A DNA stretch of 64,000 nt from the NCBI GenBank assembly GCA_944389345.1, contig CALXMA010000001.1, positions 69,117 through 133,116 of the forward strand. The letters are read 5' to 3'. The DNA comes from an uncultured Alphaproteobacteria bacterium. Lineage in GTDB: Bacteria; Pseudomonadota; Alphaproteobacteria; Rs-D84. The notes beneath the pieces were generated by a model, which had not been told where the DNA came from, did not search any database, and saw only the letters and a program-made list of their open reading frames with translations. Shown in pieces: positions 1,211-30,433 of this stretch (position 1 is its first letter; the number at the start of each line of letters is the position of its first letter). A program made the position numbers and the translations under genes.

Positions 1211-1240
1211 TTGCACGATATACGTGATTTTTTCTAGAAT
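1211..1240 (+). promoter_or_regulatory. sigma70-like promoter for the giant Cys-rich protein gene
   Basis: TTGCAC (1211-1216), 18-nt spacer, TAGAAT (1235-1240), about 20 nt upstream of the SD GAGAGGA and ATG 1263. Confidence 0.4.
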
Positions 1241-1262
1241 AAAATACAAAAGAGAGGAAAGT

Positions 1263-12760: not shown

Positions 12761-14497
12761 TTACATCACCTCTTTCAATGTGCACCCCAACGTTCTTAAT
12801 CCGTTGGCGATTACGTTCTTGAACGCCATAACCAGCAACATGCGATTATCAGTCCCGGTTTTGTCGTCTTCGTTTATTAATTTCACACCACTGTGTGGCG
12901 CCCACAACGAATGGAATGTGGCGGATAAATCTTCCATGTATTTGGTCAGCAAATTCGGCGCCTTGTTTTTACCCGCACTTTCAATCACCTTGGGATAATC
13001 GCCCATTAATCTGATCAGGTCTTGTTCAACCTTGGTCGTAGACGCATAATCATATTTGTTCTGGGACAATTTATCCAAATCGCCCGGATACAGATTTTCA
13101 TATTTCTTTAACACCGAATTAGCACGCGCGTACGCATACTGCATGTAATACACCGGATTGTCTTTGGATTGTTCTTTGGCCTTTTGCAGGTCGAACGTCA
13201 TCTGGGTATCTGGGCTTTTTATCACCATAAACAATCTTAATACGTCGGCGTCAATTTCGTCCAAGACGTCTTCTATCATAACAAAATTGCCGGCGCGTTT
13301 GGACATTTTGAATGGCTTGCCATCTTTTTCCAAATTAACAATTTGACACAAGACGATATCCAAATCCGCACGATTGTCGGTAACCGCACCCAATGCCGCC
13401 TTGATACGTTTGACATAGCCACCATGGTCCGCACCCCAAACGTCAACCTGTTTTGCAAAACCACGTTTGTATTTATTCCAATGATACGCAATGTCGGACG
13501 CAAAGTATGTTGTTTCACCACTGGCACGGGCAATAACACGATCGGCTTCGTCGCCAAATTCTGTGGATTTGAACAATAATTGTTCTGTGGGCGTCCAATC
13601 TTCTTCGGCTTCGCCCAACGGTTTTGGTAATGTACCAACATACAGCAAACCACGGTCTTGCATATATTTAATCGTGTCGGACACCTGGCCAGATTCAACC
13701 AATTCGCGTTCAGATGTAAACACGTCGAATTCAATGTCTATTTTGCGCAAACTGGCCTTGATTAATTCCATCATGGCACCCGTGGCAATTTTCTTGAAAT
13801 ATGGCACATATTCATCTTCGGTCGCGTTCAGCCATTTGTCCCCGTCCCTGTTTTTAATTTCGGTTGCAACCGGTATCAAATAGTCGCCAGGATACGCACC
13901 ATCGGGCAGTGTTTCACCATCATGCAGACCAAATAATTCTTGATAACGCCAAAACACAGAATGCGCCAGAACATCTACCTGGTGTCCATAGTCGTTAATA
14001 TAATATTCTTTGGTAACGTCAAAGCCGTTCTTTTTCAGCAAACGCGCCAATACATCGCCCAAAATCGCACCACGTGCGTGTCCGATATGCACAGGCCCCG
14101 TCGGATTGGCCGACAAAAATTCTATATTTACCTTTTCCCCGCCACCAAAATCTGTATTTCCGTACGTATCCGGGTTCTGCAAAATATTGTTTACCAAATC
14201 TTGCCACAGCGAATCCGATATATTTATGTTTATAAACCCGGGCCCCGCCACAGAAACATCCTTGATTCCGTCAATCTGTTGAATGTATGGCAACAGCATA
14301 TTGGCGATTTCACGCGGATTTTTACCCAATTCGCGCGTTAAAACCATCGCAACATTGGTGGAAAAATCACCAAAATCACGATTTTTTGGGACTTCTACCA
14401 CCACGCCGTCCCATGCGGAATCCGAAACCCCGGCCAGTTCGGGAATGTCCTGTAATTTTTGTTTAATTTGTCCAGATATTAATTTGTAAATATTCAT
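12761..14497 (-). CDS. argS: Arginine--tRNA ligase
   Basis: [15 protein letters not shown] (HIGH region), MSKRAGNFV (KMSK-like) and the overall ArgRS layout. Start at [12 protein letters not shown]. Confidence 0.95.
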
Positions 14498-14643
14498 TTT
14501 TATCGCCTGTGATTTGTTTTTATAAACGCCTGAGCCAATCATAATAATTTTATTATTATTTTCAACCTATTTATGAACCGGACGATATCAAAATAGGAAT
14601 ATACCGCATTGCGAAATCCCGACATCTGTGTTGTGCACATTCA

Positions 14644-15678
14644 TCATACAGGGCTTATACAGGATTTTAGTTTTTCAAACGAATCCGACGTGTTTTCATT
14701 GCCGTTGACTTGTTTTACATTCCCGGCAGATACAGACGCGCACTGGGGATTCTTGTTTGTAAACAATCTGCCAGAATATGGGTGCGACCCACCAGTTTTA
14801 TATTGATGCAATTCTGGGATAAAATCGACCATCCCGGAACGAGTATAGATAGGTGTGCCCCGCCCCATTACATAGCGAATTAAACATCTTGTAAAAAACC
14901 AGGAAGATAGCCCCGTGATTAACGCAATATTATCGTTGTCATTGGGACTGCCAAATATTTCTGAGGCGTATGGGACCAATTCTATATCCGCGACCCAAGT
15001 ATGCACCGGACCACAAGCCCCAGAAACTTGGTTCAAACCATTCTTTACATTTGTTATATTTCTGTTCCACCATATTTGTCCCTTGTCTTGTGGATTACAA
15101 ACAATCTGTGGGTAATCTGTTCTTAAAAATACAAAGCCATTATTATAGGTTGTTGGCATCTGTAAATTATCCAAAATTGTCTGTGTCCACGGGTGCTGAT
15201 TAATACGTTTTGAGTCTTGGAAATAATCCAGACCCGGATTTTTTAATAACATTACGAATCTGGCGGTCTTCAAATTACCAACAAACGGCGTTGGCAGTAA
15301 GTTTGTTGTTTTTATTTCCCGTTTTTTGCCACCGTATTTAATGTTATGTTTGTCAATAACGCCCGCATCATGATTGTTCAATATAAATTGTGGCACTTGG
15401 GTATTCGCTTTATAATTTCTGGCATAGACCGCCCACGGATTAAAAGTGTTAATATAATGTTCTAATGCCATCTGTTGCAGTTCATTGGCAATCGTTTTAT
15501 CGCCCGACGTCGCGGTCAAATCTGCTGTGATACCATCAAATTTATTAATGATTTTTTGCATTAAATCTGTGGGCGTTTTCCATTTTTTATATATTTCTTC
15601 ACATGAATTGACCCAGATCAATTTGATGCCCGTTAATTCATCTGTCAGATTTTTTAGTTCTTTTAATTGGGTTTGCAT
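14644..15678 (-). CDS. Hypothetical protein (344 aa), orphan gene next to the att scars
   Basis: ATG 15678 follows the SD AAGGA. The longer track ORF would run into the tRNA-Ser fragment at 15754-15780. No confident family assignment. Confidence 0.55.
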   Translation of the reverse strand: MQTQLKELKNLTDELTGIKLIWVNSCEEIYKKWKTPTDLMQKIINKFDGITADLTATSGDKTIANELQQMALEHYINTFNPWAVYARNYKANTQVPQFILNNHDAGVIDKHNIKYGGKKREIKTTNLLPTPFVGNLKTARFVMLLKNPGLDYFQDSKRINQHPWTQTILDNLQMPTTYNNGFVFLRTDYPQIVCNPQDKGQIWWNRNITNVKNGLNQVSGACGPVHTWVADIELVPYASEIFGSPNDNDNIALITGLSSWFFTRCLIRYVMGRGTPIYTRSGMVDFIPELHQYKTGGSHPYSGRLFTNKNPQCASVSAGNVKQVNGNENTSDSFEKLKSCISPV

Positions 15679-15753
15679 GATTGGTCCTTTTACATGTGCT
15701 ATTTTTACAATATAACACAAGAATGCGACAAACCTGGTCATAATGTCAATTTT

Positions 15754-15780
15754 ATTATTCCCAGCGGAGACGAAGGGATT
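15754..15780 (-). repeat. att-like scar 1: copy of the tRNA-Ser 3' end plus its downstream flank
   Basis: attattccCAgcggagacgaagggatt versus 30335-30361 attattccTGgcggagacgaagggatt (25/27 identical). Confidence 0.75.
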
Positions 15781-15939
15781 ATTTCGCTGTGCTTCATCGC
15801 CTGGCAAAATTTGCGCATGCGCGCAAACCGGCGTACGCCCGTCCGCCTTTTTGCGGCGGTTCGAACCCTTGTCCCCGGGTTCGAATCCATATTATCAAAC
15901 ACAATAAAAAATCACGCCCGTTGGGCGTGTTTTTTATTG

Positions 15940-15960
15940 TGGCGGAGACGAAGGATTCCC
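15940..15960 (-). repeat. att-like scar 2: degenerate tRNA-Ser 3' end
   Basis: tggcggagacgaagg-attccc versus tRNA tggcggagacgaagggattcg. It is preceded by a bidirectional hairpin terminator (15906-15935, CACGCCC-GTT-GGGCGTG). Confidence 0.65.
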
Positions 15961-16121
15961 TCGCACGGCACAGTGTGCCGGCTGTGGGGCAACCGTAACG
16001 ATTTGACAGCGTTGTACTTGTCAAATCTACTTGTTGTCGAACCTGCAATCTGCGATTGCGATGGATTCGCACCGTTTCATTTCACTGGGAATAATAAAAA
16101 ATGCCCTGCGTGGGCATTTTT

Positions 16122-16135
16122 ATTATTCCTGGCGG
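16122..16135 (-). repeat. att-like scar 3: 14-nt repeat of the tRNA-Ser terminal CCGCC plus downstream flank
   Basis: attattcctggcgg is identical to 30335-30348. It is preceded by the hairpin ATGCCC-TGCG-TGGGCAT. Confidence 0.6.
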
Positions 16136-16202
16136 TGCAAGAAACCTTTTACATTTGGCTTATGAAAGACCTGCGCCCAACACACGAACGAAAGGGTTAA
16201 AA

Positions 16203-16381
16203 ACAGGGAAAAACAGGGAATTTTTGCAAAAAATGGTCTTTCTAGGCAATTTTTACACAACCCACGATAGAACACGTCCGCAGATTTTCGGTGTTTTACC
16301 CTACCAGCCACAAAATTCCCTGCAAAAATAACAGGGAATTTTTCAGAACATATCAGGGAATTATCAGCGAATAACAGGGAA
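16203..16381. repeat. Array of six CAGGGAA heptamers (five direct, one inverted) at the island's left end
   Basis: ACAGGGAA at 16203, 16213, 16331 and 16374; TCAGGGAA at 16353; inverted TTCCCTG at 16316-16322. Confidence 0.7.
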
Positions 16382-16491
16382 CTTTATTTCAGCCCCCATT
16401 CCACACAAAACAAACCAAAATGCGCCAATATTACCCAACTTTGACATTGTGGTATGCCTGTGATAGTTTATATACAACCAAGGGACTAGCT

Positions 16492-16620
16492 ATGGCTGAA
16501 ATTAAAAAAATATTTAACGAATATGGTCTGGACTTTGATAACAACAAATATGGTATTGGCCAAAGCAGCGAAATAGAATATACCGACGGCACTGAAAGCA
16601 GGACTAACAAAAAAAGTTAA
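16492..16620 (+). CDS. Possible small protein (42 aa)
   Basis: ATG 16492 follows the SD AAGGGA. The peptide is MAEIKKIFNEYGLDFDNNKYGIGQSSEIEYTDGTESRTNKKS. No other support. Confidence 0.3.
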   Translation: MAEIKKIFNEYGLDFDNNKYGIGQSSEIEYTDGTESRTNKKS

Positions 16621-17191
16621 AATAAATCATATCCAAGCGCGTTATTTTCGTATTTGGATTGGTAAAAAAGTCCTGATAATAGATTCTGACAAGCCCCACT
16701 TTTCAATTCGCGACAAAAAGCGTTGGAACTTCAAAGTAGTATACGGCAGAAGCGGCAAATAACTATTTTATAACATTCTCATTCTTTCATAAATTATTAT
16801 ATATTTATTTTTCTTGAAATTTAATAACTATCGGTAGGAATTATTAACAATAATATTTAATGCCATCTATTGTAAAATCAAGCCACTATTTGCGTACCGA
16901 TTTCAAAAATTATACATTGTGCCAACATCCAAACCCCACTCTTTCTTGACTATATTTTAGAAACAAAATGCACTATTATAAGAGCAGGAGTGACATTTAT
17001 GTACACGAAACATTGAGTTAAAATTCTTGTAACAATCGTAAAACATAAGACCAATAGCCCTTAAGTTTAAACGTATTTTTGATAGGCTGATAAGTTTTAA
17101 ACAATCTAAATACTCAACTAAAAAAGATTATAAAAAGCGATAAATTGTGCGCCCCTTATAAAAAATATACTTCCCTTATCTATAGAATGCC

Positions 17192-18166
17192 TTATTTGTT
17201 ATTAAATATTTTATTTATAACTTCCTCAAAAGAAATCTGACCTTTAGAAAAGTCTTTTGTAATTTGTAGATATTCATTAGATGAAATCAATCCAGTAATA
17301 ACAAACTTATTTTCTGGCCTACCTAGTCTTTTGCAAACTATACTCAATAAAGAATTCATCTGTTCTACAAATTCTTCCCTAACTTTAGCACAAAAATAGG
17401 CCCTTTTTAGTTGACTATAAAGAAAATAATACTCTGTTATGTCTTCGGAACTTTCAAATCTTCCACAACCTACATCTGCAAACATCCTTTTATGAAATAA
17501 TTTTTCTTCTTTAATACCATCAAACTGAACACCATGTTTCTGGCAGTTTATATGAGTTTCTGCAAAATTAACAGATCCAAGCATACAAGAGCGTAGTGCG
17601 AATTTTGGAAATTTTTTCAAAAATATTTTAGGGGCACGCAAAATAAAGAAATCGTCTTTATCAAAATAGATCTGTTTTTGCCCATCTTCAGGAAAATTGT
17701 TCTGTAATGTCGAATTTATGTATTTTGCTTTGTTCTTCGGGAATTTTTGATAATATTTCCCACGTAACCATGAAAACCTCAATGATCGTGCTGAAAATTG
17801 AAAAAAAGACACCTCGCCATTTTTTATAAATATTTCTAATCCAATTTTACTTTCATAAAACAACTCTCTTAACTTGCTCTTGAAAAATTCGCTCATATCT
17901 CTATCGCAATAATGGCTGCAATTTCTGCAAAAGGCTTTATAAATTATATCATCATCATTTTGCAACGATAGTTGCCAATCACGACTATTTAATTTGGGTG
18001 GAAACGCGTATATTTCTACATCTTCTGCAAAAGATTGATGATAGGAATCCATATATATTTGCTTGTTTTTGCGGCGCTTTCCCTGCCTAAAAAAATGTTC
18101 TAAATATGGTTCTGGCCACAAATCAAATCCCATTGGAAAAAGAAAAGTTTTATTTTGCTTCGTCAT
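17192..18166 (-). CDS. Hypothetical protein (324 aa), downstream gene of an uncharacterised two-gene operon
   Basis: Its start overlaps the stop of the 889-aa ORF by 17 nt. Cys/His clusters CRNCSHYCDRD and HINCQKHG. No family recognised. Confidence 0.7.
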   Translation of the reverse strand: MTKQNKTFLFPMGFDLWPEPYLEHFFRQGKRRKNKQIYMDSYHQSFAEDVEIYAFPPKLNSRDWQLSLQNDDDIIYKAFCRNCSHYCDRDMSEFFKSKLRELFYESKIGLEIFIKNGEVSFFQFSARSLRFSWLRGKYYQKFPKNKAKYINSTLQNNFPEDGQKQIYFDKDDFFILRAPKIFLKKFPKFALRSCMLGSVNFAETHINCQKHGVQFDGIKEEKLFHKRMFADVGCGRFESSEDITEYYFLYSQLKRAYFCAKVREEFVEQMNSLLSIVCKRLGRPENKFVITGLISSNEYLQITKDFSKGQISFEEVINKIFNNK

Positions 18167-20819
18167 CTCTGCTATCCCTATAAACTCTAGAAGTTTCCGA
18201 GTTTTTTAATAATTCTTTTTGTTGTGCTTCGTCACATTTATCTAACAAGTATAAAACTATAAAAATATCGTGTCCTTTTGGGCATCTCCACATATTGCTA
18301 TCTTTATGGCAAATATTTTCTAATAATTTAGTTTTGTATTGTTTGGTTGGTTTTTCTTTTTCACCTTGATTACAGAAACTATAATGTGAAGTGCCCCACA
18401 ACAAACCCAGCTCTGATATTTTATAGCTAGCAGCTGTTTGCAAGATATTATCGAAAACACTCCATTTTGCCGTTGACAAAGTGGGTCTCTTGTAAGAACT
18501 AATTTGAGATATTAAAGTTTTTATTCCTAGTTTTTCTATAATGTACTCCCAGACAGGGATAATTTGTAATTTAAGATTTTTATTTTCGTATATATCATCA
18601 AAGAGAAAAATGTATCCTGACAAATCCATTAATTCTGCAAAAAACATTTCAATTTTCGCAGAATACCAATTCATATTATTATGAATAAATACTACTGGCT
18701 TACCAGATTTAACTAGATTAACTACATCTTCACCTATATCTTGCATTTGTGCTTCAACTACATGAACCATTGTACGTAATAAATCGCCCACAATATCATC
18801 ATTCTCTGTTTTCTCTTCAAAAATTATATTCAATAATTCTTTATGCAATATTATATAAACAAACCCCAAATGATCTGGAGTTTTCCCATCTGTAGGCCTT
18901 ATATATGGTGATATTTTTATAACTAGTCTAAGTAGCTGATTTTTTATAGCATCTAATTGATTTTGCAATAATACAAAACTTTTATCATTTTTGAATGCTT
19001 TTTTGCTTGTCTCTAATGCGTTATGAAGCTTATGGTAAAATTCGTATACTCTATTGAATATCACTACAGATATGTCGGGATTATTCTTTATAAATTCATC
19101 TTCCGAATAGTCACATATGATTTTAGACACACGAGAGATTATGTCTTGATACCATTGTTTTGTGAACTCTAAGCTATTTTCAATTAACAAGTTTCTTATA
19201 TGCCAATTGGGGGTTTTTATGTTTCCTTCAACTTTGCTTTCAAACCACAATCGATTATGTAAATCTTCCATAACTTTTTTGAGAGAATTAGGCAAATTCA
19301 TAGAATTATGAATAAACCCGCGTTTCATAATCTTTTTTATAGTAATTTTCTCAATTCCTTGTTTAATATTTGTATTAAAAGAAAGCGCTAAATCAACATA
19401 AATTGATACATAGGCATCAGCAATATATGTATAAAATTTATCTGAAGAGTTACTTACAAAGTTGACCGAAAAAGGATTATATATTTTGTCTAGAATAAAG
19501 ACAACTTCATCTGTTTTGCTTTTCGCATTTAACCATTTTACATACTGACCGACCTGTAGTATTACACTGTAGTATAATTTGTATTTTCCTTTCTCAAATA
19601 ATTTTTTTAAACAACGATTTATAATCTGAATAAAGCGTTCTTCTACCCACATAGTGTCATGAACAGTAGCTGGGATGAATCCTGTTCCGGTTTTTTGCGA
19701 TAAGTCAATATCACTAAAACTAGCCGATGTATATTTTTTAAATTGATAGGTTTGCGGGAACCAATAACTGTTTGTTGGTATTTTTGATTTTATAGCAATA
19801 TAATTGGACATTGATACAAACGCTTGGTTAATTATATCAATAACAACATTTGTTTGTAGCAAATCCTGATTAAGAGCAAACTCAACAATATTATCATACG
19901 TATTAAACGTATCATTTGTGATTTTGCATAAATGGTTCTGAAAATTAGCATCATATTTATATAATGATGAATTTGTGGCTAGATTTATATTTTTTTGAAT
20001 ACTTGGATATATATATTGAGAAATAAGGTTTGCGGGATTAAAAAATAAAAATATATATGAAGCCAACTCCCAAAATGATACAAGTGATGTAAAGCTAAAT
20101 ATAGCGACAAGGTAGAAATTCCATATACTCAGTTTTATACCCTGAACCATCATAAATATAGAGACTAATAAAATTGCCATCAATACAATTATGGATTTTA
20201 CATATATATTGGATAGACGTATTGAAGTTAACAGCTTACCAATTTCTCCGTTAACCTTCGCATAAATGGTTTGAGCAATAATTGATGCCGCTGCAAAGTA
20301 CAAACCAAGAAATGTTCCTATAATTCCTGCAAGACTAACGTACAAATCAAATAACTTTTTCTGATTGGGAGAATTAATCAACTCGCGCGCAAGAGTCACT
20401 AGCCCAAATTTGATAGTTCCTTGATAATCTAAAAGGAAAATTCCAAAACAAACTACGAAGGCGAAAAGACTGAGTTTCCAATGCCTCAAAAATATTTCTT
20501 TAAAATATAAAACGGCATCACCCTTAGCATCCTTGATACATCTTGCTAAACTAAAGAAAAATCGTTTTATTCGAAAGATGGGATATATATAAAAGCATTT
20601 TCTTACCTTTAAAAACTTTACAGAAGTCATAAGTTTAAAACGAATAGTACTTGGCGCACAATAATAACCAAAAGCTTTAATTTTATAAAGAAAAATACGA
20701 AAAAAATCTTTGAAGCTTTCATACGAAAAAGCCAAACCTTCATAGAAACATGTAAAAAATTGACATACCTTTACTTTTAACTTCGCTCTAAAAGATTTTT
20801 TCTTTACGACCTTTACCAT
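18150..20819 (-). CDS. Hypothetical large membrane protein (889 aa): N-terminal multi-TM block plus ~600-aa soluble helical domain
   Basis: Uninterrupted 2.7-kb ORF in 28-30% GC DNA. Hydrophobic helices include LSLFAFVVCFGIFLL, LYVSLAGIIGTFLGLYFAAASIIAQ, IIVLMAILLVSIFMMV and FYLVAIFSFTSLVSFWELASYIFLFF. No catalytic motif recognised. Confidence 0.75.
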   Translation of the reverse strand: MVKVVKKKSFRAKLKVKVCQFFTCFYEGLAFSYESFKDFFRIFLYKIKAFGYYCAPSTIRFKLMTSVKFLKVRKCFYIYPIFRIKRFFFSLARCIKDAKGDAVLYFKEIFLRHWKLSLFAFVVCFGIFLLDYQGTIKFGLVTLARELINSPNQKKLFDLYVSLAGIIGTFLGLYFAAASIIAQTIYAKVNGEIGKLLTSIRLSNIYVKSIIVLMAILLVSIFMMVQGIKLSIWNFYLVAIFSFTSLVSFWELASYIFLFFNPANLISQYIYPSIQKNINLATNSSLYKYDANFQNHLCKITNDTFNTYDNIVEFALNQDLLQTNVVIDIINQAFVSMSNYIAIKSKIPTNSYWFPQTYQFKKYTSASFSDIDLSQKTGTGFIPATVHDTMWVEERFIQIINRCLKKLFEKGKYKLYYSVILQVGQYVKWLNAKSKTDEVVFILDKIYNPFSVNFVSNSSDKFYTYIADAYVSIYVDLALSFNTNIKQGIEKITIKKIMKRGFIHNSMNLPNSLKKVMEDLHNRLWFESKVEGNIKTPNWHIRNLLIENSLEFTKQWYQDIISRVSKIICDYSEDEFIKNNPDISVVIFNRVYEFYHKLHNALETSKKAFKNDKSFVLLQNQLDAIKNQLLRLVIKISPYIRPTDGKTPDHLGFVYIILHKELLNIIFEEKTENDDIVGDLLRTMVHVVEAQMQDIGEDVVNLVKSGKPVVFIHNNMNWYSAKIEMFFAELMDLSGYIFLFDDIYENKNLKLQIIPVWEYIIEKLGIKTLISQISSYKRPTLSTAKWSVFDNILQTAASYKISELGLLWGTSHYSFCNQGEKEKPTKQYKTKLLENICHKDSNMWRCPKGHDIFIVLYLLDKCDEAQQKELLKNSETSRVYRDSRDDEAK

Positions 20820-20995
20820 GCCTTAGTTTTAGCAAAAAAACACCAAATATTCAACATATTATTCCTAATAACTAGCTTGTTTTTACTATAAATACCTTTT
20901 CCCTTATAATACAACTTGTAATACAGCCCCTAAAAAATAACAAGTTAATTCTAATATCAGCTTGAAAACCTTAAAATCTTTCTTATTTTTTAGAT

Positions 20996-21577
20996 ATGAC
21001 AGTGGGTGTTTGTAAGTTTTGCGGTCAAGAAAAAGAACTCATCGCATCACATATTATTCCAAAAGTATTATATCAATTGGAAAAGTATGGTAGCGTTGTT
21101 GATGTTGATGTCAAAAATACACGCATCAAAAAAGATCCCAAGCATCAAAATGGCGTTAAAGAAGCGTTGCTGTGTAAAGAATGCGATACTGCATTGGGGT
21201 ATTTTGACGGGTACATAAACAAAGTTCTCAATATAGAAGTTCCCAAAATAGATAAAAACAAAACATTTTATGATACTCCATGTATTTGCCTGCCAGCAGA
21301 TAAGTACAACTTGGACAGATTGCGTAGATTTTTTATCTCTCTTTTATGGCGATCATCAATATGTTCTAGGCCAATTTCTTTAGGCAAATACCAGGATATC
21401 GCTTTAAAAATATTAAAAAATGAAATTCCTGATAATACAGACCTGTTTTTACCTCTGATTTATAGACGTGTTGGTCGTGGTCACGTAAATAATATGACTG
21501 GAATTTTTGGCACCAAGTACCTAGGGAAACGTGCTTTTATATTCAGATTTCCTGGTTATGAAGTAATGATTATATAA
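20996..21577 (+). CDS. HNH-like (HNH_5-type) zinc-finger protein, possibly truncated
   Basis: N-terminus CKFCGQEKELIASHIIPK plus LCKECDTALG resembles the CxxC...H-IIP...CxxC layout of HNH_5 endonuclease-like proteins. Confidence 0.55.
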   Translation: MTVGVCKFCGQEKELIASHIIPKVLYQLEKYGSVVDVDVKNTRIKKDPKHQNGVKEALLCKECDTALGYFDGYINKVLNIEVPKIDKNKTFYDTPCICLPADKYNLDRLRRFFISLLWRSSICSRPISLGKYQDIALKILKNEIPDNTDLFLPLIYRRVGRGHVNNMTGIFGTKYLGKRAFIFRFPGYEVMII

Positions 21578-21582
21578 ATACT

Positions 21583-21861
21583 TTGCATAGCTCATCCCCA
21601 CAAACGATGGAGATACACCGCCAACAATTCTCAACTAAGGAAGCCCTTATTTTTGATATTGATTATAATACACCACTTGATTATTTACTTGTATCAAATC
21701 TATTTAAGTGTCGTGATAACACTCCGGGATTAAAGCGTCCACCAGATTATGTCCCGGGACAAATACCGCTACCTCGCCGTACCTTCGTTTTAGGTGGCGG
21801 GCTGCAAAACAATTTGCACATAAAAAGCCCGTATATAATTTTACCAAAATACGATACTTAA
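21583..21861 (+). pseudogene. ORF fragment, possibly the frameshifted C-terminal part of the HNH-like gene
   Basis: It begins 5 nt after the stop of 20996-21577 in a different frame, with a TTG start and no SD. Confidence 0.3.
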
Positions 21862-22153: not shown

Positions 22154-23548
22154 ATGAATGACAAAGGCGCTAAAATGGTAAAAATTTGTGCGATAGGAAT
22201 AAATATACCAGGGCTTCCATCTCTTGATATACTTCAACCCCAATCTTTGGATGATTATGACGTAATCTTTTTTAACCCCGAACAAATAACTAGTAAATTA
22301 AGCCATGCTAAACAGCTAAACTTTGTTAACGGGAACACAACATTGAACGAACAGGAAAGTGCTAAAGCTATAACATATTTTTCACATTGGACTAGCGAAA
22401 TAGCCTTTGCTTTAGATGCTGGGAAAACAATTGTTGTAACAGCAAGTTTAAACAGTTTAATAAAATACGCCCACAGAAGCTCCCATAATACTAACACTTG
22501 GGTCACCAACGCTAGTACTCTTTATGAACCTTTCGGACTGTCCGAATTGAATACGACTTCACTGCAGGGTGAAATTGTTTCGGCTACACCTTCTTGCATA
22601 CAAAATATATTATCTCCATTAGCTAAACATCTTTCTTATTCTGTTGTCTTTAACGACATAAGGAAACTAGAAAACACACAGCCTGTTTTAACGACGACAG
22701 GAGGGCGCTGTGTGGGTTTACTAAAACTATTCAACGAAAAAAAAGGAAAAATTCTTATCATTCCAAAACCAATATTTGACTATGCCCCCTTCGACGACAC
22801 AGAAAAAGACGCACAGCTCGGGAAAATACTAACCCAGACTGCTGTTGACTTACATAAATTTGGTATCCAAGCATGTGAAGCTTTACCAGAATGGGTCAAT
22901 GACGAATTATACAAAACAGAAACAGAAAAAATGCTGGATTCACAATTGACTGATATAGACACCCAGATTCAACGTCTAAAAGATTCAAAATTGCCAATTG
23001 AACAACAAAAAGAAGAGGAAATGGTACTCAAACAGTTGCTTTTTGGCAAAGGCAAGCCACTAGAAAACGCCGTAAATACAGCATTAAATATTATAGGCAT
23101 TTCAGCAAAATCGTATCGTTTTACAAAAAAAGATTTAGAAATCGATCAACTGGCCAATGTCGGAGACCGCATATTGATTGGTGAATGTGAAGGCAAAGAT
23201 AACAAAGATATAGACAAAACAAAGATAAGCCAGTTAATAATTAACAAAGGTGAGTATTATGCGGAACCAGACGTAGACACATCCAAGCAAATAAAACTTG
23301 TTCTTTTTGGAAATCCGATGAGACTTACTGTCCCCAAAGACAGAACCTTAGATTTCACAAAAGCATGTAAAGATATCGCAAATAACAACCAGGTAGCATT
23401 AGTAAAAACAGAAGACCTGTTTTATGTTGCTAAGTACATCAAAGCCTCAGGCGATAAGAAGTTTGCAACAACTTGTTTAAATACAATTATGGACACCGAA
23501 CAAGGAATTGTTAAATTCCCAGATGTACCACGAAGCAAAAAACAATGA
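22154..23548 (+). CDS. Hypothetical protein (464 aa) with central coiled coil and C-terminal PD-(D/E)xK-like nuclease signature
   Basis: The C-terminal third reads LENAVNTALNIIGISAKSYRFTKKDLEIDQLANVGDRILIGECEGKDNKDIDKTKISQL, a D...E.K restriction-endonuclease-like pattern. A coiled coil lies around QLTDIDTQIQRLKDSKLPIEQQKEEE. Confidence 0.7.
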   Translation: MNDKGAKMVKICAIGINIPGLPSLDILQPQSLDDYDVIFFNPEQITSKLSHAKQLNFVNGNTTLNEQESAKAITYFSHWTSEIAFALDAGKTIVVTASLNSLIKYAHRSSHNTNTWVTNASTLYEPFGLSELNTTSLQGEIVSATPSCIQNILSPLAKHLSYSVVFNDIRKLENTQPVLTTTGGRCVGLLKLFNEKKGKILIIPKPIFDYAPFDDTEKDAQLGKILTQTAVDLHKFGIQACEALPEWVNDELYKTETEKMLDSQLTDIDTQIQRLKDSKLPIEQQKEEEMVLKQLLFGKGKPLENAVNTALNIIGISAKSYRFTKKDLEIDQLANVGDRILIGECEGKDNKDIDKTKISQLIINKGEYYAEPDVDTSKQIKLVLFGNPMRLTVPKDRTLDFTKACKDIANNNQVALVKTEDLFYVAKYIKASGDKKFATTCLNTIMDTEQGIVKFPDVPRSKKQ

Positions 23549-23600: not shown

Positions 23601-24497
23601 TTATTTTAACAACTCCTCAAACACACCTTTTTGAACCATATCGATATTTAAAATATAATCAGTTGTATTAAAAGTATCGCGTAATGGTCGCTGAGTTTTC
23701 TGCCAGCCTAAACCATCCGTTATCCATATAAACTGGTGTCCGTCTTTTGTCCACTGATGATAAATATCTGCATATTCGCCTGCGGTTGATTTTAATTTTG
23801 ATCCGCCACCGCCATAGAAATTTGTTTCTATCAGATATAGTTTATTAGGGGTATTTATAGCAAAATCAACACGCTTGGATGATTTATTCACAGTAATATT
23901 TTTACCCCATTTTTTATAAATTTTATCTGCGGTCGCTTGTGCGATATATTCATAGCCATTACGCTCACAAATATCTTTTATAAAATATTCCATCAAGTTT
24001 TCCATTGATGTGCCACTGCGGTTCTTGCGCCCATTTGAATCAAGCCCAACTTCTACCCCAAGAAAATAATCTGGGATAGATTTAATTGTACGGTCAGATA
24101 CTAAATCAAGGAAGCCACTTGCTTTCATAAATAGGACACCATCCTCTGCAGACATAGGCTTTGAAAAGTCAAAGCATTTAAGTTCAAAAGTTTTTATATC
24201 TGAAACAAGTTTGATTTTCTTTTCTCTATCAGCCAAAAGCGCCGGTATAACACCTATAATTTTTGGATATTCCTTTAATAAATCTTTTGCTGCTTTTTCA
24301 ACATCCGCCTTACCAATCAGAGTATTCAATAAGTTTAGTGCAATCTCTGCTTCGTGATAATTATTGATAACTTTTGACCAGTTAACAAAATAATCCCAAG
24401 ATTTTATACTTTCTTTTAGGCTTGAAATCAAATAACTAAAAACGTCATCTTCGTTCTTGCAACCCAAAAGTTCATCAAAAATTTTAGAATACTTCAT
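23601..24497 (-). CDS. dpnB: Type II restriction endonuclease, DpnII/MboI family (GATC)
   Basis: GVEVGLDSNGRKNRSGTSMEN, LYLIETNFYGGGGSKLKST and FIWITDGLGW match the blocks I remember from R.DpnII (GVEVGMDTNGRKNRTG..MEN, EVNFYSGSGSKL, WITDGQGW). Confidence 0.85.
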   Translation of the reverse strand: MKYSKIFDELLGCKNEDDVFSYLISSLKESIKSWDYFVNWSKVINNYHEAEIALNLLNTLIGKADVEKAAKDLLKEYPKIIGVIPALLADREKKIKLVSDIKTFELKCFDFSKPMSAEDGVLFMKASGFLDLVSDRTIKSIPDYFLGVEVGLDSNGRKNRSGTSMENLMEYFIKDICERNGYEYIAQATADKIYKKWGKNITVNKSSKRVDFAINTPNKLYLIETNFYGGGGSKLKSTAGEYADIYHQWTKDGHQFIWITDGLGWQKTQRPLRDTFNTTDYILNIDMVQKGVFEELLK

Positions 24498-25282
24498 TTT
24501 ATTCCTTTCTTTTCAAGGATATCATACAGCCTTTTTTCTGCCAATTCAACAAATTGCGCTTCCTGATCTATGCCGACAAATTTTCTGTCATACTTTAATG
24601 CCGCAACCCCAGTTGTCCCACTGCCCATAAATGGGTCTAATATTAAATCTCCTGGATTTGTACAACATAAAATTATTCTTTCCAATAAGTCCAATGGCTT
24701 TTGTGTCGGATGCTTGCCGAAAGTTTTTTCTGATTTTGACGGTGTTGGAATAGACCAAACACTTCTCATCTGACAATCGGGCTTTTTCAAAATATCTTTT
24801 GGAAATGCACCACATTTCATAGCATCGTAATTAAATATATGCTTTGCGTTCTTACTTTTTCTTGCCCAAATAAGTGTTTCATGGCTAGCAGTAAAGTATC
24901 TACAAGACATATTTGGACTGGCATTTGGTTTGTACCACGCAACATCATTTAATATATGAAAACCCAACAACTGCATCGCAAAGCCACACGAATATATACT
25001 GTGGTATGTACCACTTATCCAAATTGTGCCATTGGGTTTTAATACTCGCCGGCATGCAGAAAGCCACTTTTTATGAAACTCAAAATCAGCCATCAACCCG
25101 TGCGACTCGTCCCACTTGCCTTTATTAACTGACACAACTTGACCATTTTGGCACGTTATACCCCCATTTGACAACATATAAGGCGGATCCGCAAAAATCA
25201 TATCAAAGGTATTTTCTGGAATCTGTTCCAGACACGTTAAGCAATCTTCACAATAAAGACGGAAGGGTTTCTTTGTCATCAC
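24494..25282 (-). CDS. dpnA: DNA adenine methyltransferase, DpnA-like (beta class, DPPY)
   Basis: MIFADPPYMLSNGGI...VVSVNKGKWD...LKPNGTIWISG...SCRYFT.SHETLIWARK...GKHPTQKP..LLERII...ILDPFMGSGTTG is nearly collinear with M.DpnA as I recall it. A 4-nt overlap links it to both neighbours. Confidence 0.9.
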   Translation of the reverse strand: MMTKKPFRLYCEDCLTCLEQIPENTFDMIFADPPYMLSNGGITCQNGQVVSVNKGKWDESHGLMADFEFHKKWLSACRRVLKPNGTIWISGTYHSIYSCGFAMQLLGFHILNDVAWYKPNASPNMSCRYFTASHETLIWARKSKNAKHIFNYDAMKCGAFPKDILKKPDCQMRSVWSIPTPSKSEKTFGKHPTQKPLDLLERIILCCTNPGDLILDPFMGSGTTGVAALKYDRKFVGIDQEAQFVELAEKRLYDILEKKGIK

Positions 25283-25806
25283 TTATTGCCAATAAATGTC
25301 GCAGTACTTATAATAGAATATAAATCTCTATCTGTTAATAGCGCATCTAAAATAGATTTAAACATAAACGCATTTGGATTATTTGTTTTTTCTTGAAACA
25401 TAAGTAGCGTCATTACCGTATATATAAATTGTATATCATATGTATCAGGAAAACTTAATTTCTGAAACATCTTTATTTTATCGTAATCAATGTTATCCAT
25501 TAGTTGTTTTCGCTCTGATATAGAACTGACACCTTTTATTTCCGCCCATTGCTCTTGCATACTCTCTATAAAACTGCATGTTAGCTTATTGTTTTTTACT
25601 TTCTTCATTAACAAATCTACAGTCCAATGAATATGTTTAGGCTGTCTTATGCGGCTATGTTTTTCTTTATATGCGACCCTAAAATCAAACTCAGATAACC
25701 CGCCTTCGTATATAGCAACAAAGTATTTATTATCAATCTGTCTTGCTGCTATTGGAACACCATGTCTCTTATCTGTCATTTCTAATAAAACATCTTGTTC
25801 TGACAT
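25279..25806 (-). CDS. Hypothetical protein (175 aa) embedded in the DpnII cassette
   Basis: ORF with an SD (aaggagttttt ATG). Its stop overlaps the dpnA-like start (ATGA). No motif recognised. Confidence 0.65.
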   Translation of the reverse strand: MSEQDVLLEMTDKRHGVPIAARQIDNKYFVAIYEGGLSEFDFRVAYKEKHSRIRQPKHIHWTVDLLMKKVKNNKLTCSFIESMQEQWAEIKGVSSISERKQLMDNIDYDKIKMFQKLSFPDTYDIQFIYTVMTLLMFQEKTNNPNAFMFKSILDALLTDRDLYSIISTATFIGNK

Positions 25807-25863
25807 AAAAACTCCTTATAAAAAAGAGTCTAATATTACAGGATAATAAACACAACAAAATAT

Positions 25864-26793
25864 TTAATAGTTTGTTATTAACAACTCACGAATAGCACTA
25901 CGACCATCTGCATTTGCGTTTATCAGACGTTTTGCAAGTATTCTGTTTATATTATAGTCTTGGTATAAATCATCAAAGAATGTATCGTTTACATAATTTG
26001 TTGGGTCTGAATTACTTAACATCTGTAAAGCACCTGCTTTATCACACGCTTCAAAAACGTTCTTAAGGCGAATTTGCTCATCATCATTAAAATCCCCAAT
26101 AGCATAAGAATTAAACGAAGATGTTTTTCTAATCGGGCGATATGGTGGGTCGTAATAGATAAACGTATCTTTTTTTACATACTCTTGAACAGAACTAAAA
26201 TCTGTTTGGATGATAGTCGCAATTTGTAAAGCGTCTGATACGTTACGCAAATTTTCCGCATCTAATATTCTTGGGTTGGAGTACTTACCCATCGGAACAT
26301 TAAACATATTTTTTGAATTAACACGAAATAATCCGTTAAAACATGTTCGGTTCAAGAATATGGTCAACGCTGCACGTCTGATAAACCGCTGATTATAAAT
26401 ATTTGCATCGAGAGTTTTGTCCATGCTGTTATATTCATCACGCCTTGCGTAATAATATTCTTTTTTATCTTCTGTATGATTGTACTCTGTACTTATTTTT
26501 GTCAGTTCAACTATCAATTTTTCAACATCATATTTGATAACATTATACAGAATAACCAGCTCAGGATTGATATCGAACAAGAAGGCCTCTTTGATTGAGA
26601 ATCGATTATAAATATCGAAGAACACAGCCCCACCACCAACAAACGGTTCTATATATCTTTTTATCCCGCCCATTTTCAATTTTAAAGGCAGTTTTTCATT
26701 GATTTTATCTAATAGCTGCCCCTTGCCACCTGCCCATTTTAATACAGGTTTGCACTCAATATAATCTGCTAATTTTACCGGTAGTGGCGCCAC
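25864..26793 (-). CDS. dpnM: Dam-type N6-adenine DNA methyltransferase, DpnM-like (GATC)
   Basis: LKWAGGKGQLL, YIEPFVGGGAVFFD, FNGLFRVNSKNMFNVPMGKY, FIYYDPPY and MLSNSD are the D12-class Dam/DpnM motifs. GTG start. Confidence 0.9.
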   Translation of the reverse strand: MAPLPVKLADYIECKPVLKWAGGKGQLLDKINEKLPLKLKMGGIKRYIEPFVGGGAVFFDIYNRFSIKEAFLFDINPELVILYNVIKYDVEKLIVELTKISTEYNHTEDKKEYYYARRDEYNSMDKTLDANIYNQRFIRRAALTIFLNRTCFNGLFRVNSKNMFNVPMGKYSNPRILDAENLRNVSDALQIATIIQTDFSSVQEYVKKDTFIYYDPPYRPIRKTSSFNSYAIGDFNDDEQIRLKNVFEACDKAGALQMLSNSDPTNYVNDTFFDDLYQDYNINRILAKRLINANADGRSAIRELLITNY

Positions 26794-27636: not shown

Positions 27637-28069
27637 AGATATTTTGCCAAAGACATTTGAAGAGTTAAAAGCGTTATCACAAGATGAGCGCGCGCGTTTA
27701 TGGGCACGGTATTCGCCCCACCCTTTTAAGCGATAAATGCGATCGCTTTGGTACTATATTCAATGCGAACGACTAAACCTGCGTATTGAGCCAAAGTTCA
27801 TCAAGAAAATAAAAAAGTATAAAGACAACCCCGCCGAATGCGTAGATCGTGTATTAAAGCACAGGTATAACATTGCACCCGGCACAACTATCATCAGGAA
27901 CTTTCGGAATATAGAGCACAAGGTCCTGGTCAATTATGACAATACGTTTTTATATAACGAAAAGCAGTATCGTTCCCTATCCGCAATTGCGTCTGATATT
28001 TGTGGTGCGAAGACATCAGGACCACACTTTTTTGAACTGGATAAAAGGAAAGTAAATGCCAGTGATTAA
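27620..28069 (+). pseudogene. DUF2924-like recombinase-associated gene interrupted by an in-frame TAA (27734-27736)
   Basis: ATG 27620 gives MQRKVKDILPKTFEELKALSQDERARLWARYSPHPFKR-stop. The same frame continues MRSLWYYIQCERL...GTTIIRNFRNIEHKVLVNYDNTFLYNEKQYRSLSAIASDICGAKTSGPHFF, the G..l.R.w.G..h.V.v...f.y.g..Y.SLSaiA..ItG...sGp.FF pattern of DUF2924. It lies directly upstream of, and overlaps, the serine recombinase gene. Confidence 0.6.
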
Positions 28070-29651
28070 ATGCGCTGTTTATGTCCGTAAGTCAACAGAA
28101 CATGGGTTGGAACAAGAGTTTAATTCCCTGTTAAACCAGGATGAATCTTGTAAAGCATACATTGCGTCCCAGGCATTTAATAATTGGGAATATGTTCGCA
28201 CTTATACTGATGCGGCGATTTCTGGCGGGACTATGGAACGGCCTGCCCTGAAACAAATGTTGGACGATATGGCACATGGTTTGGTCAATACGGTTGTGGT
28301 TTATAAGGTTGACCGACTGTCGCGTTCCATATTGGACTTTCATAAGATGATGCAGTATTTCAACAAGTATAACGCGAACTTTGTGTCCATAACCCAATCG
28401 TTTGATACCAGTACATCCATGGGTAAATTGACATTGAACATGTTGCTGTCATTCGCCCAATTTGAACGCGAGGTTTCCAGCGAACGAGTACGGGATAAAA
28501 TACGTGCCAGTAAGGCCAAAGGCATCTGGATGGGTGGGATGCCACGGTTGGGATATGATGTCGTGGACAAGAAGCTGATTGTAAATCCAGCCGAAGCCGA
28601 GCAAGTTAGACAACTGTTTGGTAAATACTTGGAGCTGCAATCTGTGAACGACTTGACCCTGTGGGCCGAAAGCAACGGTATTCGCGCCAAGGCATGGACA
28701 ACCGCCAAAGGGGTGCTGCGTGGTGGCAAGCCCATTACACCGAACAGCATGCACAAGATTTTGCGAGACAAAATCTATATCGGAATGATCGAAAATAAGG
28801 TCAGCAATAATGTTGCCCGTGGCGAACATCAGGCGATCGTATCGCCGGAAGTATTTGAACAGGTACAGGATGCATTGAGGGCGAATTCTAATAATACCAG
28901 TCATCGCAGGCGGTCGCCAAACCTGCTGTCACGAAAGCTGTATAACGACAAAGGTGTGCGTTTTACCAATCAGCACGCATGCTCCAAGGACAAGGTGGGG
29001 CCATATTACTATGCAACACGGGGGTTCTATCTGCCGGCGGCACAGGTGGATGAAATAGCCATGTCTGTTGTGGCGGATTTTCTGGACAGTGATATGAGTG
29101 CCCTGGCCCAAAATGTGGTCATGGCATTGAAACGGATTGTGTGGGAAGACCTGTCATACCTGCAAAGGCGGGAATTGGTTCGCGTTATGATTGAACGAGC
29201 AGTTTATTCGCAAGAACAACTGATATTCTGTATCAATATCAACCCACAGCTGTATAATTCATTTTTATCTACATACCACATCAATCACAATAGCCGTCCA
29301 ATGGAATATACAGTAAATGGCGATAATGTGACGATTGTGCGACCGGTTGTACTGCGCCGATATGCCAACACCAGATTTAGCGGTGGACGTAATGGCACGC
29401 TAAGTATTACAGAAAATAACCACTTGATATTAAAGGCCTTTGCCACGGCGTGGAAATATAGAGAATTGTATGAACGAGATGGGGATATCCACAGGATATT
29501 CCAAGAAGAACGCACGTCACCACGTCAGTTTTACCGACACCTGGACATTGCATATATGAATCCGGACAATGTTAATGAAATACTGTCCGGGAAAATACAC
29601 ATAAATGTTAATGACTTGTTTCAGATTGCGAGAGAGAATCAACTATATTAG
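28056..29651 (+). CDS. Large serine recombinase (resolvase N-terminal domain plus recombinase/zinc-ribbon region)
   Basis: CAVYVRKSTEHG (catalytic Ser region), VVVYKVDRLSRS, the SFAQFERE..SERV E-helix and a ~380-aa C-terminal extension. Confidence 0.9.
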   Translation: MPVIKCAVYVRKSTEHGLEQEFNSLLNQDESCKAYIASQAFNNWEYVRTYTDAAISGGTMERPALKQMLDDMAHGLVNTVVVYKVDRLSRSILDFHKMMQYFNKYNANFVSITQSFDTSTSMGKLTLNMLLSFAQFEREVSSERVRDKIRASKAKGIWMGGMPRLGYDVVDKKLIVNPAEAEQVRQLFGKYLELQSVNDLTLWAESNGIRAKAWTTAKGVLRGGKPITPNSMHKILRDKIYIGMIENKVSNNVARGEHQAIVSPEVFEQVQDALRANSNNTSHRRRSPNLLSRKLYNDKGVRFTNQHACSKDKVGPYYYATRGFYLPAAQVDEIAMSVVADFLDSDMSALAQNVVMALKRIVWEDLSYLQRRELVRVMIERAVYSQEQLIFCININPQLYNSFLSTYHINHNSRPMEYTVNGDNVTIVRPVVLRRYANTRFSGGRNGTLSITENNHLILKAFATAWKYRELYERDGDIHRIFQEERTSPRQFYRHLDIAYMNPDNVNEILSGKIHINVNDLFQIARENQLY

Positions 29652-30342: not shown

Positions 30343-30433
30343 TGGCGGAGACGAAGGGATTCGAACCCTTGATACCCTTGCGGGTATACTACATTTCCAA
30401 TGTAGCGCACTAGACCAACTATGCGACGTCTCC
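30343..30433 (-). tRNA. tRNA-Ser(GGA)
   Basis: Minus strand reads GGAGACG-TC-GCAT-AGTTGGTCTA-GTGC-G-CTACA-TTGGAAA-TGTAG, then a long variable arm TATACCCGCAAGGGTATC, then AAGGG-TTCGAAT-CCCTT-CGTCTCC-G-CCA. A terminator hairpin follows (CCCCGACA-AAAT-CTGTCGGGG). Confidence 0.9.

Follow-up and report, generated by a model that had tools for sequence, protein, structure and literature searches.

What is the function of two overlapping genes that lie next to restriction-modification (RM) genes in an island of low guanine-plus-cytosine (GC) content in an uncultured gut alphaproteobacterium? The question was raised by a DNA stretch of 64,000 nucleotides (nt) from the GTDB lineage Rs-D84 (contig CALXMA010000001.1, positions 69,117 to 133,116 of the forward strand), which is called the window here. 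The two open reading frames (ORFs), of 889 and 324 amino acids (aa), are named gene A and gene B, and related loci in other genomes carry L numbers such as L001 and L016. A sequence-only reading of the window had regarded the pair as a candidate defence system of the abortive-infection type. Our analysis indicated that A and B are one horizontally mobile two-gene module, most likely serving in defence against phages or other mobile elements, and the probability of this explanation is put at roughly 0.5. The pair is laid out as follows.

18150-20819, minus strand: gene A, 889 aa, ATG start; predicted inner-membrane protein (ORF list, homologues, AlphaFold model)
17192-18166, minus strand: gene B, 324 aa, ATG start; soluble partner with a predicted minimal portal-like fold (ORF list, homologues, model, Foldseek)
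18150-18166, minus strand: 17-nt overlap of the A stop and the B start, read directly from the sequence; overlap or close adjacency is kept in almost all related loci
20820-20995: divergent intergenic region 5' of A, presumed promoter that is common to a ParB_N-like gene; assigned by position only

The ORF list gave both minus-strand frames exactly the coordinates and lengths that had been claimed for them. The 3' end of A (GAT GAC GAA GCA AAA TAA) encloses the start of B (ATG ACG AAG CAA AAT AAA). By direct reading of these letters, A and B are translationally coupled via the 17-nt overlap, and this claim of the sequence-only reading was borne out. A promoter scan 5' of A gave no signal above the shuffled expectation. 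Therefore, the assignment of the promoter is positional only. Both genes are more than chance ORFs because they have homologues at 20–87% identity and their ratio of non-synonymous to synonymous substitution rates (dN/dS) is 0.10–0.22. In the three closest pairs, the ratio was 0.19–0.22 for A and 0.10–0.22 for B. Judged by these ratios, both genes are under purifying selection.

The pairing of the two genes was determined by searching an A profile and a B profile against every ORF of the 61 loci. In all of the approximately 50 loci with downstream DNA, a B homologue was found directly downstream of A on the same strand, either overlapping it or within a few bases. The exceptions were contig ends, one B and one A that are split by a frameshift, and one A that is interrupted by an IS3 insertion. 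The pairing is kept down to 20% identity and is obligate across the related loci. In a single case, a metagenomic protein of 1,145 aa (P0103), A and B are joined in one chain, with A as residues 2–778 and B as residues 842–1143. This chain may be a genuine fusion, or else the product of a frameshift where the two genes overlap. All-against-all clustering of 426 neighbouring genes revealed no consistently linked third gene; the one recurrent neighbour is a large serine recombinase, present in about 11 of the 43 non-redundant loci. The module thus almost certainly exists as a selected and obligate pair.

Neither protein matched a named defence system. The search of A and B against PADLOC-DB v2.0, which includes Zorya, Kiwa, Druantia, Gabija, Septu, Thoeris, Lamassu, the abortive-infection (Abi) families and the PDC candidates, returned 0 families at an E-value (E) of ≤ 1. 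Against Pfam-A and NCBIfam, only sub-threshold chance matches were obtained and none was above a curated threshold. No significant match was found in PHROGs, and profiles of A and B gave chance matches only against the sequences of the PDB. Precomputed Pfam domains were absent from all 41 homologue clusters, and the plasmid copies are labelled 'hypothetical protein' in RefSeq. The earlier statement that the pair belongs to no named system was upheld for both proteins by PADLOC, Pfam, NCBIfam and PHROGs. A-B is a widespread two-gene module that these four resources do not recognise; two published systems, San Juan and Dallas, were compared with it by description only.

The extent of the family was estimated at several depths. 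A word-indexed search returned 16 clusters for A and 6 for B, and the use of a B profile lifted the latter to 25. An exhaustive profile search of 1.84 billion representatives returned 1,300 relatives of A at E ≤ 1e-3 and 713 at E ≤ 1e-30, where a relative is a representative cluster at 50% identity. Most of them are full-length proteins, and the median length is 850 aa. In a scan of one genome per species, 46 loci from more than 15 phyla carried the pair, and this count is a lower bound because a single peptide pattern was used, the motif FLGLYFAAAS of the second transmembrane helix (TM2) of A. The hosts include Saccharibacteria and other Patescibacteria, Omnitrophota, Acidobacteriota-like bacteria, Actinobacteria, Bacteroidota, Rhodothermales, Gemmatimonadota, Ignavibacteria, Gammaproteobacteria, Chlamydiota (Simkania), Thermodesulfobacteriota, Firmicutes and others. 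The pair is notably common in Patescibacteria. It was also found on three plasmids of cultured bacteria, one from Burkholderia glumae and two from Paenibacillus (including Paenibacillus lautus). The B. glumae copy is on NZ_CP021077.1, with the proteins WP_209954640.1 and WP_209954642.1, and the P. lautus copy is on pAZOPL1, with WP_119851504.1 and WP_119851503.1. No match to A or B was found in 50,697 phage genomes, and no relative of A in 2.9 million IMG/VR contigs.

The window and about 45 related loci are rich in RM genes, other defence genes and recombinases. Over all loci, the RM genes are of types I, II and III, and DISARM-like helicases are among the other defence genes. In individual loci, the pair is accompanied by an AlwI RM system and DUF5677, by McrBC and Fic, by a type I RM system with Abi_2, ArdA and a relaxase, by ParB_N, DUF4747 and NUDIX proteins, by a zeta toxin and Cas2, by VapBC and insertion sequence (IS) elements, or by a serine recombinase with DUF2924, an ADP-ribosylglycohydrolase and a terminase remnant. 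The combination of DUF2924 and a large serine recombinase also flanks A-B in L008 and L013. Directly 5' of A, depending on the locus, there are HsdR and YgjP, SNF2 or ResIII helicases, a ResIII-TnsA nuclease, DUF499 or a DUF4011-REase helicase. The 204 genes closest to the pair (three on each side) include matches to the PADLOC models DrmD, DrmA, MTase_II, MADS, BrxH, REase I/II, MTase III, AbiEi, MzaA, PDC-S57 and DRT (reverse transcriptases), and Pfam added serine and tyrosine recombinases. Matches to the ZorD model also appeared among the neighbours; they are generic SNF2 helicases and were rejected as evidence of Zorya. The operon hsdR-ygjP-A-B was found in two deep lineages, between which A is 22% and HsdR 29% identical, and in L014, L043 and L053 the last genes of hsdM-hsdS-hsdR-ygjP operons are A-B. 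From this genomic context, a role of A-B in the conflict with phages or other mobile elements is reasonably supported.

L043 and L053 were also compared with each other. They were binned as metagenome-assembled genomes (MAGs) of 'Gammaproteobacteria' and 'Patescibacteria', respectively, and share the hsdR-ygjP-A-B operon at 75–86% protein identity, both at 34% GC. This similarity is explained either by a recent transfer between phyla or by a binning error.

The architecture of protein A was analysed by hydropathy, conservation over 204 diverse members and an AlphaFold model. The model is all-alpha, with a predicted local distance difference test score (pLDDT) of 78 and a predicted template-modelling score (pTM) of 0.70. 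Four regions of A were distinguished.

20484-20819, minus strand: residues 1–112, rich in Lys and Arg, with predicted long amphipathic helices, low pLDDT and conservation of 0.07–0.26; presumed cytoplasmic
20046-20483, minus strand: residues 113–258, four transmembrane helices at about 114–132, 151–184, 201–225 and 232–258 (hydropathy and model)
20283-20312, minus strand: residues 170–179, part of TM2 (FLGLYFAAAS), where conservation across the family is highest
18153-20045, minus strand: residues 259–889, soluble all-alpha domain of about 630 aa

A hydrophobic block of about 4–5 helices and a following helical domain of about 600 aa had been recognised in the sequence-only reading. The block is composed of four helices at about 113–258, and it follows a region of about 110 residues rich in Lys and Arg rather than standing at the extreme N-terminus. 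Conservation is highest in TM2, where the window of residues 161–180 reached 0.65; the consensus is FLGLYFxAxS, with Gly172, Tyr174 and Ser179 invariant. In the soluble domain, Gln294, Tyr340, Lys344, Ile347, Pro348, Ser351, Trp353, Trp391, Glu393, Glu518, Glu527, Trp539, Glu593, Lys597, Pro648, Asp649, Gly652, Gly735 and Trp757 are 90–100% conserved. Because of these roughly 20 near-invariant residues, the alignment indicates that the domain would hold a specific catalytic site or binding interface and would not be a passive scaffold. Foldseek comparison of the A model with the PDB returned only generic alpha-solenoids and designed repeats at TM-scores of 0.1–0.2, and no enzyme fold. A is predicted to be an inner-membrane protein with a cytoplasmic N-terminus. 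Its large helical domain is predicted to be cytoplasmic, like B, because the N-terminus is strongly basic and is followed by four transmembrane helices.

Protein B contains no hydrophobic segment by hydropathy. Its AlphaFold model has a pLDDT of 65 and a pTM of 0.68; it is confident at about residues 45–180 and 245–324 and poor at 1–44 and 190–243. The part that matches portal proteins is located as follows.

17195-18034, minus strand: residues 45–324 of B, the folded, portal-matching part, with an alpha/beta region (45–180), a low-confidence region (190–243) and a helix (241–281)

The helix has 41 residues and bears the invariant Glu245 and Tyr246, Arg263 and Asn271; Asp49, Glu111 and Gln140 are invariant as well. 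In the Foldseek search of the B model against the PDB, the top 50 matches were all portal or connector proteins, with a best E of 6.4e-4 and a probability of up to 1.0. They include the portals of HK97, SPP1, 80alpha, SaPI1, phage 812, T4, lambda, G20c, SPbeta, a gene-transfer agent and an archaeal tailed virus, as well as the Avs4-portal complex 8dgf. Against BFVD, every named match in the top 50 was a portal or upper-collar protein, with 17 at E ≤ 1e-3 and a best E of 7.6e-5. Going by this model, B probably has a genuine portal-like fold. In the sequence-only reading, the small protein had been credited with nothing except Cys/His clusters; its key feature, the predicted portal-like fold, could not be seen there. 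The clusters are present in B, but they are not conserved even among homologues of 48–80% identity. Therefore, they are not a functional signature, and their assignment as metal sites was rejected. A role of B as the functional portal of some virus or satellite was rejected too, because the pair is absent from the 50,697 phage genomes, A is absent from IMG/VR and no capsid or terminase gene is linked.

A mechanism can be proposed from these features. B, probably as a ring, would be anchored to the membrane through the cytoplasmic domain of A and would mimic a phage portal. It would engage what recognises or threads a portal, namely the terminase-DNA packaging motor, head-assembly proteins or DNA ends. 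The engagement would be relayed to A, which would be transducer and effector at once, with the conserved TM2 and the site in the soluble domain giving the response. The simplest response of A would be a perturbation of the membrane by which the infection is aborted. The sequence-only reading had likewise favoured an abortive-infection module with a membrane effector, and such a mode of action is plausible. The specific portal-decoy mechanism, which builds on the model of B, is put forward tentatively. Equally conjectural is its evolutionary counterpart, in which a domesticated phage portal, tethered to the membrane by a partner with four transmembrane helices, would bait or trap the machinery for DNA packaging or the DNA itself, and would have been spread horizontally from Patescibacteria to Proteobacteria and Firmicutes. 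The proposal of a portal mimic fits because the portal and terminase are favoured triggers of immunity, because partners with four transmembrane helices are common in abortive systems, and because B is portal-like yet absent from viruses. A literature search for portal-like defence components found no matching description.

Several results weigh against this interpretation. As a distal control, 99 genes lying 6.5–10 kb away in the same loci were inspected, and they also include defence genes. The islands extend beyond 10 kb; therefore, this control was uninformative about a distance-dependent enrichment, and the defence context is described here by the composition of the neighbourhoods. In many loci, above all those of Patescibacteria, no defence gene was recognised beside the pair. 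The portal matches of B come from one AlphaFold model of medium confidence, and their TM-scores are just 0.27–0.38; such values are expected for an elongated multi-domain monomer, yet the match is not proof. When the Pfam portal families were searched against 53 B sequences, none matched at E ≤ 10. For a profile-profile comparison by hhalign, 11 phage portals were combined into an HK97-family profile, and its match to B was non-significant (P = 0.079, probability 0.7%). The alignment obtained was colinear, with residues 90–177 of B against residues 112–184 of the HK97 portal, and spanned the wing helix and a beta-strand. In favour of a portal-like B, 'portal protein' was the sole annotated PHROG among its weak matches (2 of the 53 members, E = 0.016).

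Explanations other than a portal decoy were weighed as well. Portal rings are conduits and valves for DNA, and a B ring anchored by A could clamp or stall incoming DNA, either for superinfection exclusion or for holding the DNA for RM enzymes, without death of the cell. Such an entry block or restriction helper would suit the predicted fold of B and the tight operons after hsdR-ygjP in two deep lineages. It would also suit the frequent position of the pair beside RM systems and on integrative elements, which profit from exclusion. However, no RM gene shares the operon at most loci, no DNA-binding motif was detected, and the stem/clip region of B looks reduced in a part of the model with low confidence, so that a DNA channel is unproven. 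This explanation is therefore regarded as rather unlikely. A function for the mobile element itself, such as a membrane-anchored conduit for the export or import of DNA or a maintenance device for transfer and stability, draws on the same fold as that of a DNA-translocation device. A serine recombinase and DUF2924 adjoin the pair in many loci, and the pair was found on plasmids that are conjugative or large and also beside a relaxase and ArdA. Nevertheless, the recombinase is the sole recurrent neighbour; consistent linkage to an ATPase, a relaxase or a coupling protein was not observed. Some copies also belong to type I RM operons or to chromosomal hot spots that lack mobility genes, and the pair is absent from phage genomes, as A is from IMG/VR. 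We consider this function improbable.

The translationally coupled two-gene layout, together with VapBC, zeta toxin, AbiE and IS elements nearby, would also be compatible with an addiction module of the toxin-antitoxin type, in which A is a membrane toxin, B its co-translated neutraliser and the island is stabilised by the two. Both proteins are, however, very large for such a pair, and many residues are invariant across hundreds of positions in both of them. The natural A-B fusion is hard to square with a labile antitoxin. This explanation is thus very unlikely. Finally, the portal match may be an artefact of modelling, and A-B may be a hitchhiking accessory membrane complex, for example one that modifies the envelope through an enzymatic all-alpha domain. 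The TM-scores below 0.4, the non-significant hhalign result and the unmatched Pfam portal families would agree with an artefact. The conserved Trp, Tyr, Glu and Asp residues of A may, by general analogy, recall all-alpha hydrolases or lyases, and glycosyltransferases neighbour some loci. On the other hand, about 100 top matches in two independent libraries are almost all portals, no enzyme fold in the PDB was matched by the A model, and the large domain of A is predicted to be cytoplasmic from its four transmembrane helices and strongly basic N-terminus. An artefact of this kind is accordingly held to be of low probability.

A defence role of A-B can be compared with known systems. Phage portals such as HK97 gp3, SPP1 gp6, 80alpha, SPbeta YonE and phi29 gp10 are like B in predicted fold, and the smallest portal matches are about the size of B (324 aa), with 300 residues in the SPbeta YonE chain and 299 aa in an 'upper collar protein'. 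In contrast to the phage portals, B shows no significant sequence similarity to them and does not stand beside terminase or capsid genes; its neighbours are RM, recombinase and helicase genes. B is also always paired with a membrane protein of four transmembrane helices, and its stem/clip appears reduced in the low-confidence model. Kiwa is a two-gene module of defence islands composed of KwaA, with four transmembrane helices, and KwaB (DUF4868), a soluble protein of about 300 aa, and its layout is similar to that of A-B. However, neither the PADLOC Kiwa models nor DUF4868 were matched, A is about four times as large as KwaA and has a soluble domain of 630 aa, and B is portal-like rather than KwaB-like. 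Zorya contains ZorA and ZorB, a proton-channel pair related to MotA and MotB, and no PADLOC or Pfam match to Zorya was found for A or B. RexAB of phage lambda consists of a cytoplasmic sensor and a membrane partner with four transmembrane helices on a mobile element. A-B shares this conceptual layout with RexAB and similar Abi pairs of a sensor and a membrane effector, while its proteins are much larger. Accessory genes of type I RM operons, such as Abi_2 and YgjP-like genes, take the same position at the operon end as A-B in L014, L043 and L053; they show no homology to A-B, and most A-B loci are outside RM operons.

In Avs and RAZR, the portal/terminase axis of phage assembly triggers immunity. 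RAZR is described as an immune sensor of this axis (PMC13017515). Those systems recognise the portal of the phage, whereas here the host protein itself looks portal-like, and A-B contains neither a STAND NTPase nor an RNase. Two systems from functional metagenomics were reported with an abortive phenotype (Cell Host Microbe 2025, PMC12366544). San Juan is composed of two genes, one of which (sjdB) encodes four predicted transmembrane domains. Dallas includes a gene that is restricted to Patescibacteria, and the system is escaped by T4 through a mutation of the large terminase on the side that faces the portal. The comparison of A-B with both was made by description only. The transmembrane protein is sjdB in San Juan and the first gene in A-B, and DdgA of Dallas is said to be without homologues beyond Patescibacteria, in contrast to the more than 15 phyla that contain A and B. 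It is rather unlikely that either system belongs to the A-B family. If one does, the defence role would already be experimentally supported, and the portal-mimic interpretation would gain weight.

The island that hosts the pair in the window was delimited as well. GC is about 30% across approximately 16–27 kb and about 45% elsewhere. The features around A and B are given below.

12761-14542: argS, on one side of the island
14644-15807: unannotated ORF of 387 aa; no family, with a match far below threshold to the Brig1 glycosylase model (E = 0.005)
15913-15929: bidirectional terminator-like hairpin in an ORF-poor stretch of 1.4 kb
16097-16121: bidirectional terminator-like hairpin, at the break of collinearity with a sister strain (16112)
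20996-21861, plus strand: ParB_N/HNH-like gene that diverges from A; in this assembly it has a frameshift near 21574
22154-23548, plus strand: protein of 464 aa; no Pfam, NCBIfam or PADLOC match and only weak PHROG matches (E = 0.002)
23601-26793, minus strand: DpnII-type RM cassette with R.DpnII, an N6/N4 methyltransferase, an ORF of 175 aa and a Dam-family methyltransferase
27737-29651, plus strand: DUF2924 protein and large serine recombinase; the two adjoin tRNA-Ser and close the island on its far side
30343-30433, minus strand: tRNA-Ser, next to the serine recombinase

Beyond A, the gene order is the ParB_N/HNH-like gene, the 464-aa protein, the DpnII endonuclease, the N6/N4 methyltransferase, the 175-aa ORF, the Dam-family methyltransferase, DUF2924, the recombinase and tRNA-Ser. 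An Rfam scan of 10–32 kb found nothing besides this tRNA. The low-GC region at approximately 16.1–30.3 kb is an integrative element of the serine-recombinase type, roughly 14 kb long, because the DUF2924 gene and the large serine recombinase adjoin tRNA-Ser. The 'defence island' of the sequence-only reading is a real low-GC island with RM genes, and is more precisely described as this integrative element. The RM and nuclease genes that had been noticed nearby are likewise present, since the DpnII endonuclease (Pfam E = 3.5e-94), two adenine methyltransferases and the ParB_N/HNH-like gene adjoin the pair.

The 175-aa ORF (25279-25806) lies between the two methyltransferases and matched no Pfam family, and the 464-aa protein could be another candidate unknown gene of the island. 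The ParB_N/HNH-like gene is broken into ORFs of 193 and 92 aa in the window; it is intact in L016 (288 aa) and in L001 (334 aa, Pfam ParB_N). Near A-B it recurs only within an Enterousia-like clade, in varying positions and orientations. Hence, it was rejected as a third member of the module and is a separate gene of the island. Within the region 14644-17191, the 1.4 kb after the 387-aa ORF holds no ORF of 100 aa or more and contains the two hairpins.

The sister strain L016 (CALXMC010000006.1), an uncultured gut alphaproteobacterium, is 98.3% identical to the window from 23762 down to 16112. The hairpin at 16097-16121, with position 16112, marks one edge of the shared segment that contains A-B. 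Downstream of B in L016 (7692-14366), the window sequence is replaced by genes for a WYL/WCX regulator, an ankyrin-repeat protein, an MBL-fold RNase and an FtsK/HerA-like ATPase. The genes 3' of B thus differ between the two strains, which means strain-level turnover at a hot spot. The nearest named relative with the pair is a MAG of Candidatus Enterousia, an alphaproteobacterial genus. In three alphaproteobacterial lineages (L001, L005 and the window), the pair lies about 3–7 kb from argS, with A 45–87% identical and the intervening genes different. This arrangement suggests that the site adjacent to argS is a long-lived variable hot spot. Elsewhere in the window, an ORF of 2,236 aa (1224-7934, plus strand) with a raised GC of about 52% stands directly after tRNA-Met (1042-1118).

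If the pair does defend its hosts, it would add a widespread system of about 1,300 clusters in more than 15 phyla, and one that is common in Patescibacteria, a group with few known defences. If the portal mimicry is true as well, it would be a new class of immunity, in which a viral structural protein is mimicked and the sensor is an exapted portal. A portal decoy would aim at the most conserved machine of tailed phages, which could explain how the module functions in very distant hosts, and it would give a new handle on the recognition between terminase and portal. The hypothesis can be tested directly with the homologues on plasmids of Burkholderia glumae and Paenibacillus lautus, which are culturable. 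Should A-B not be a defence system, a cellular portal-like protein tethered to the membrane would still be new cell biology.

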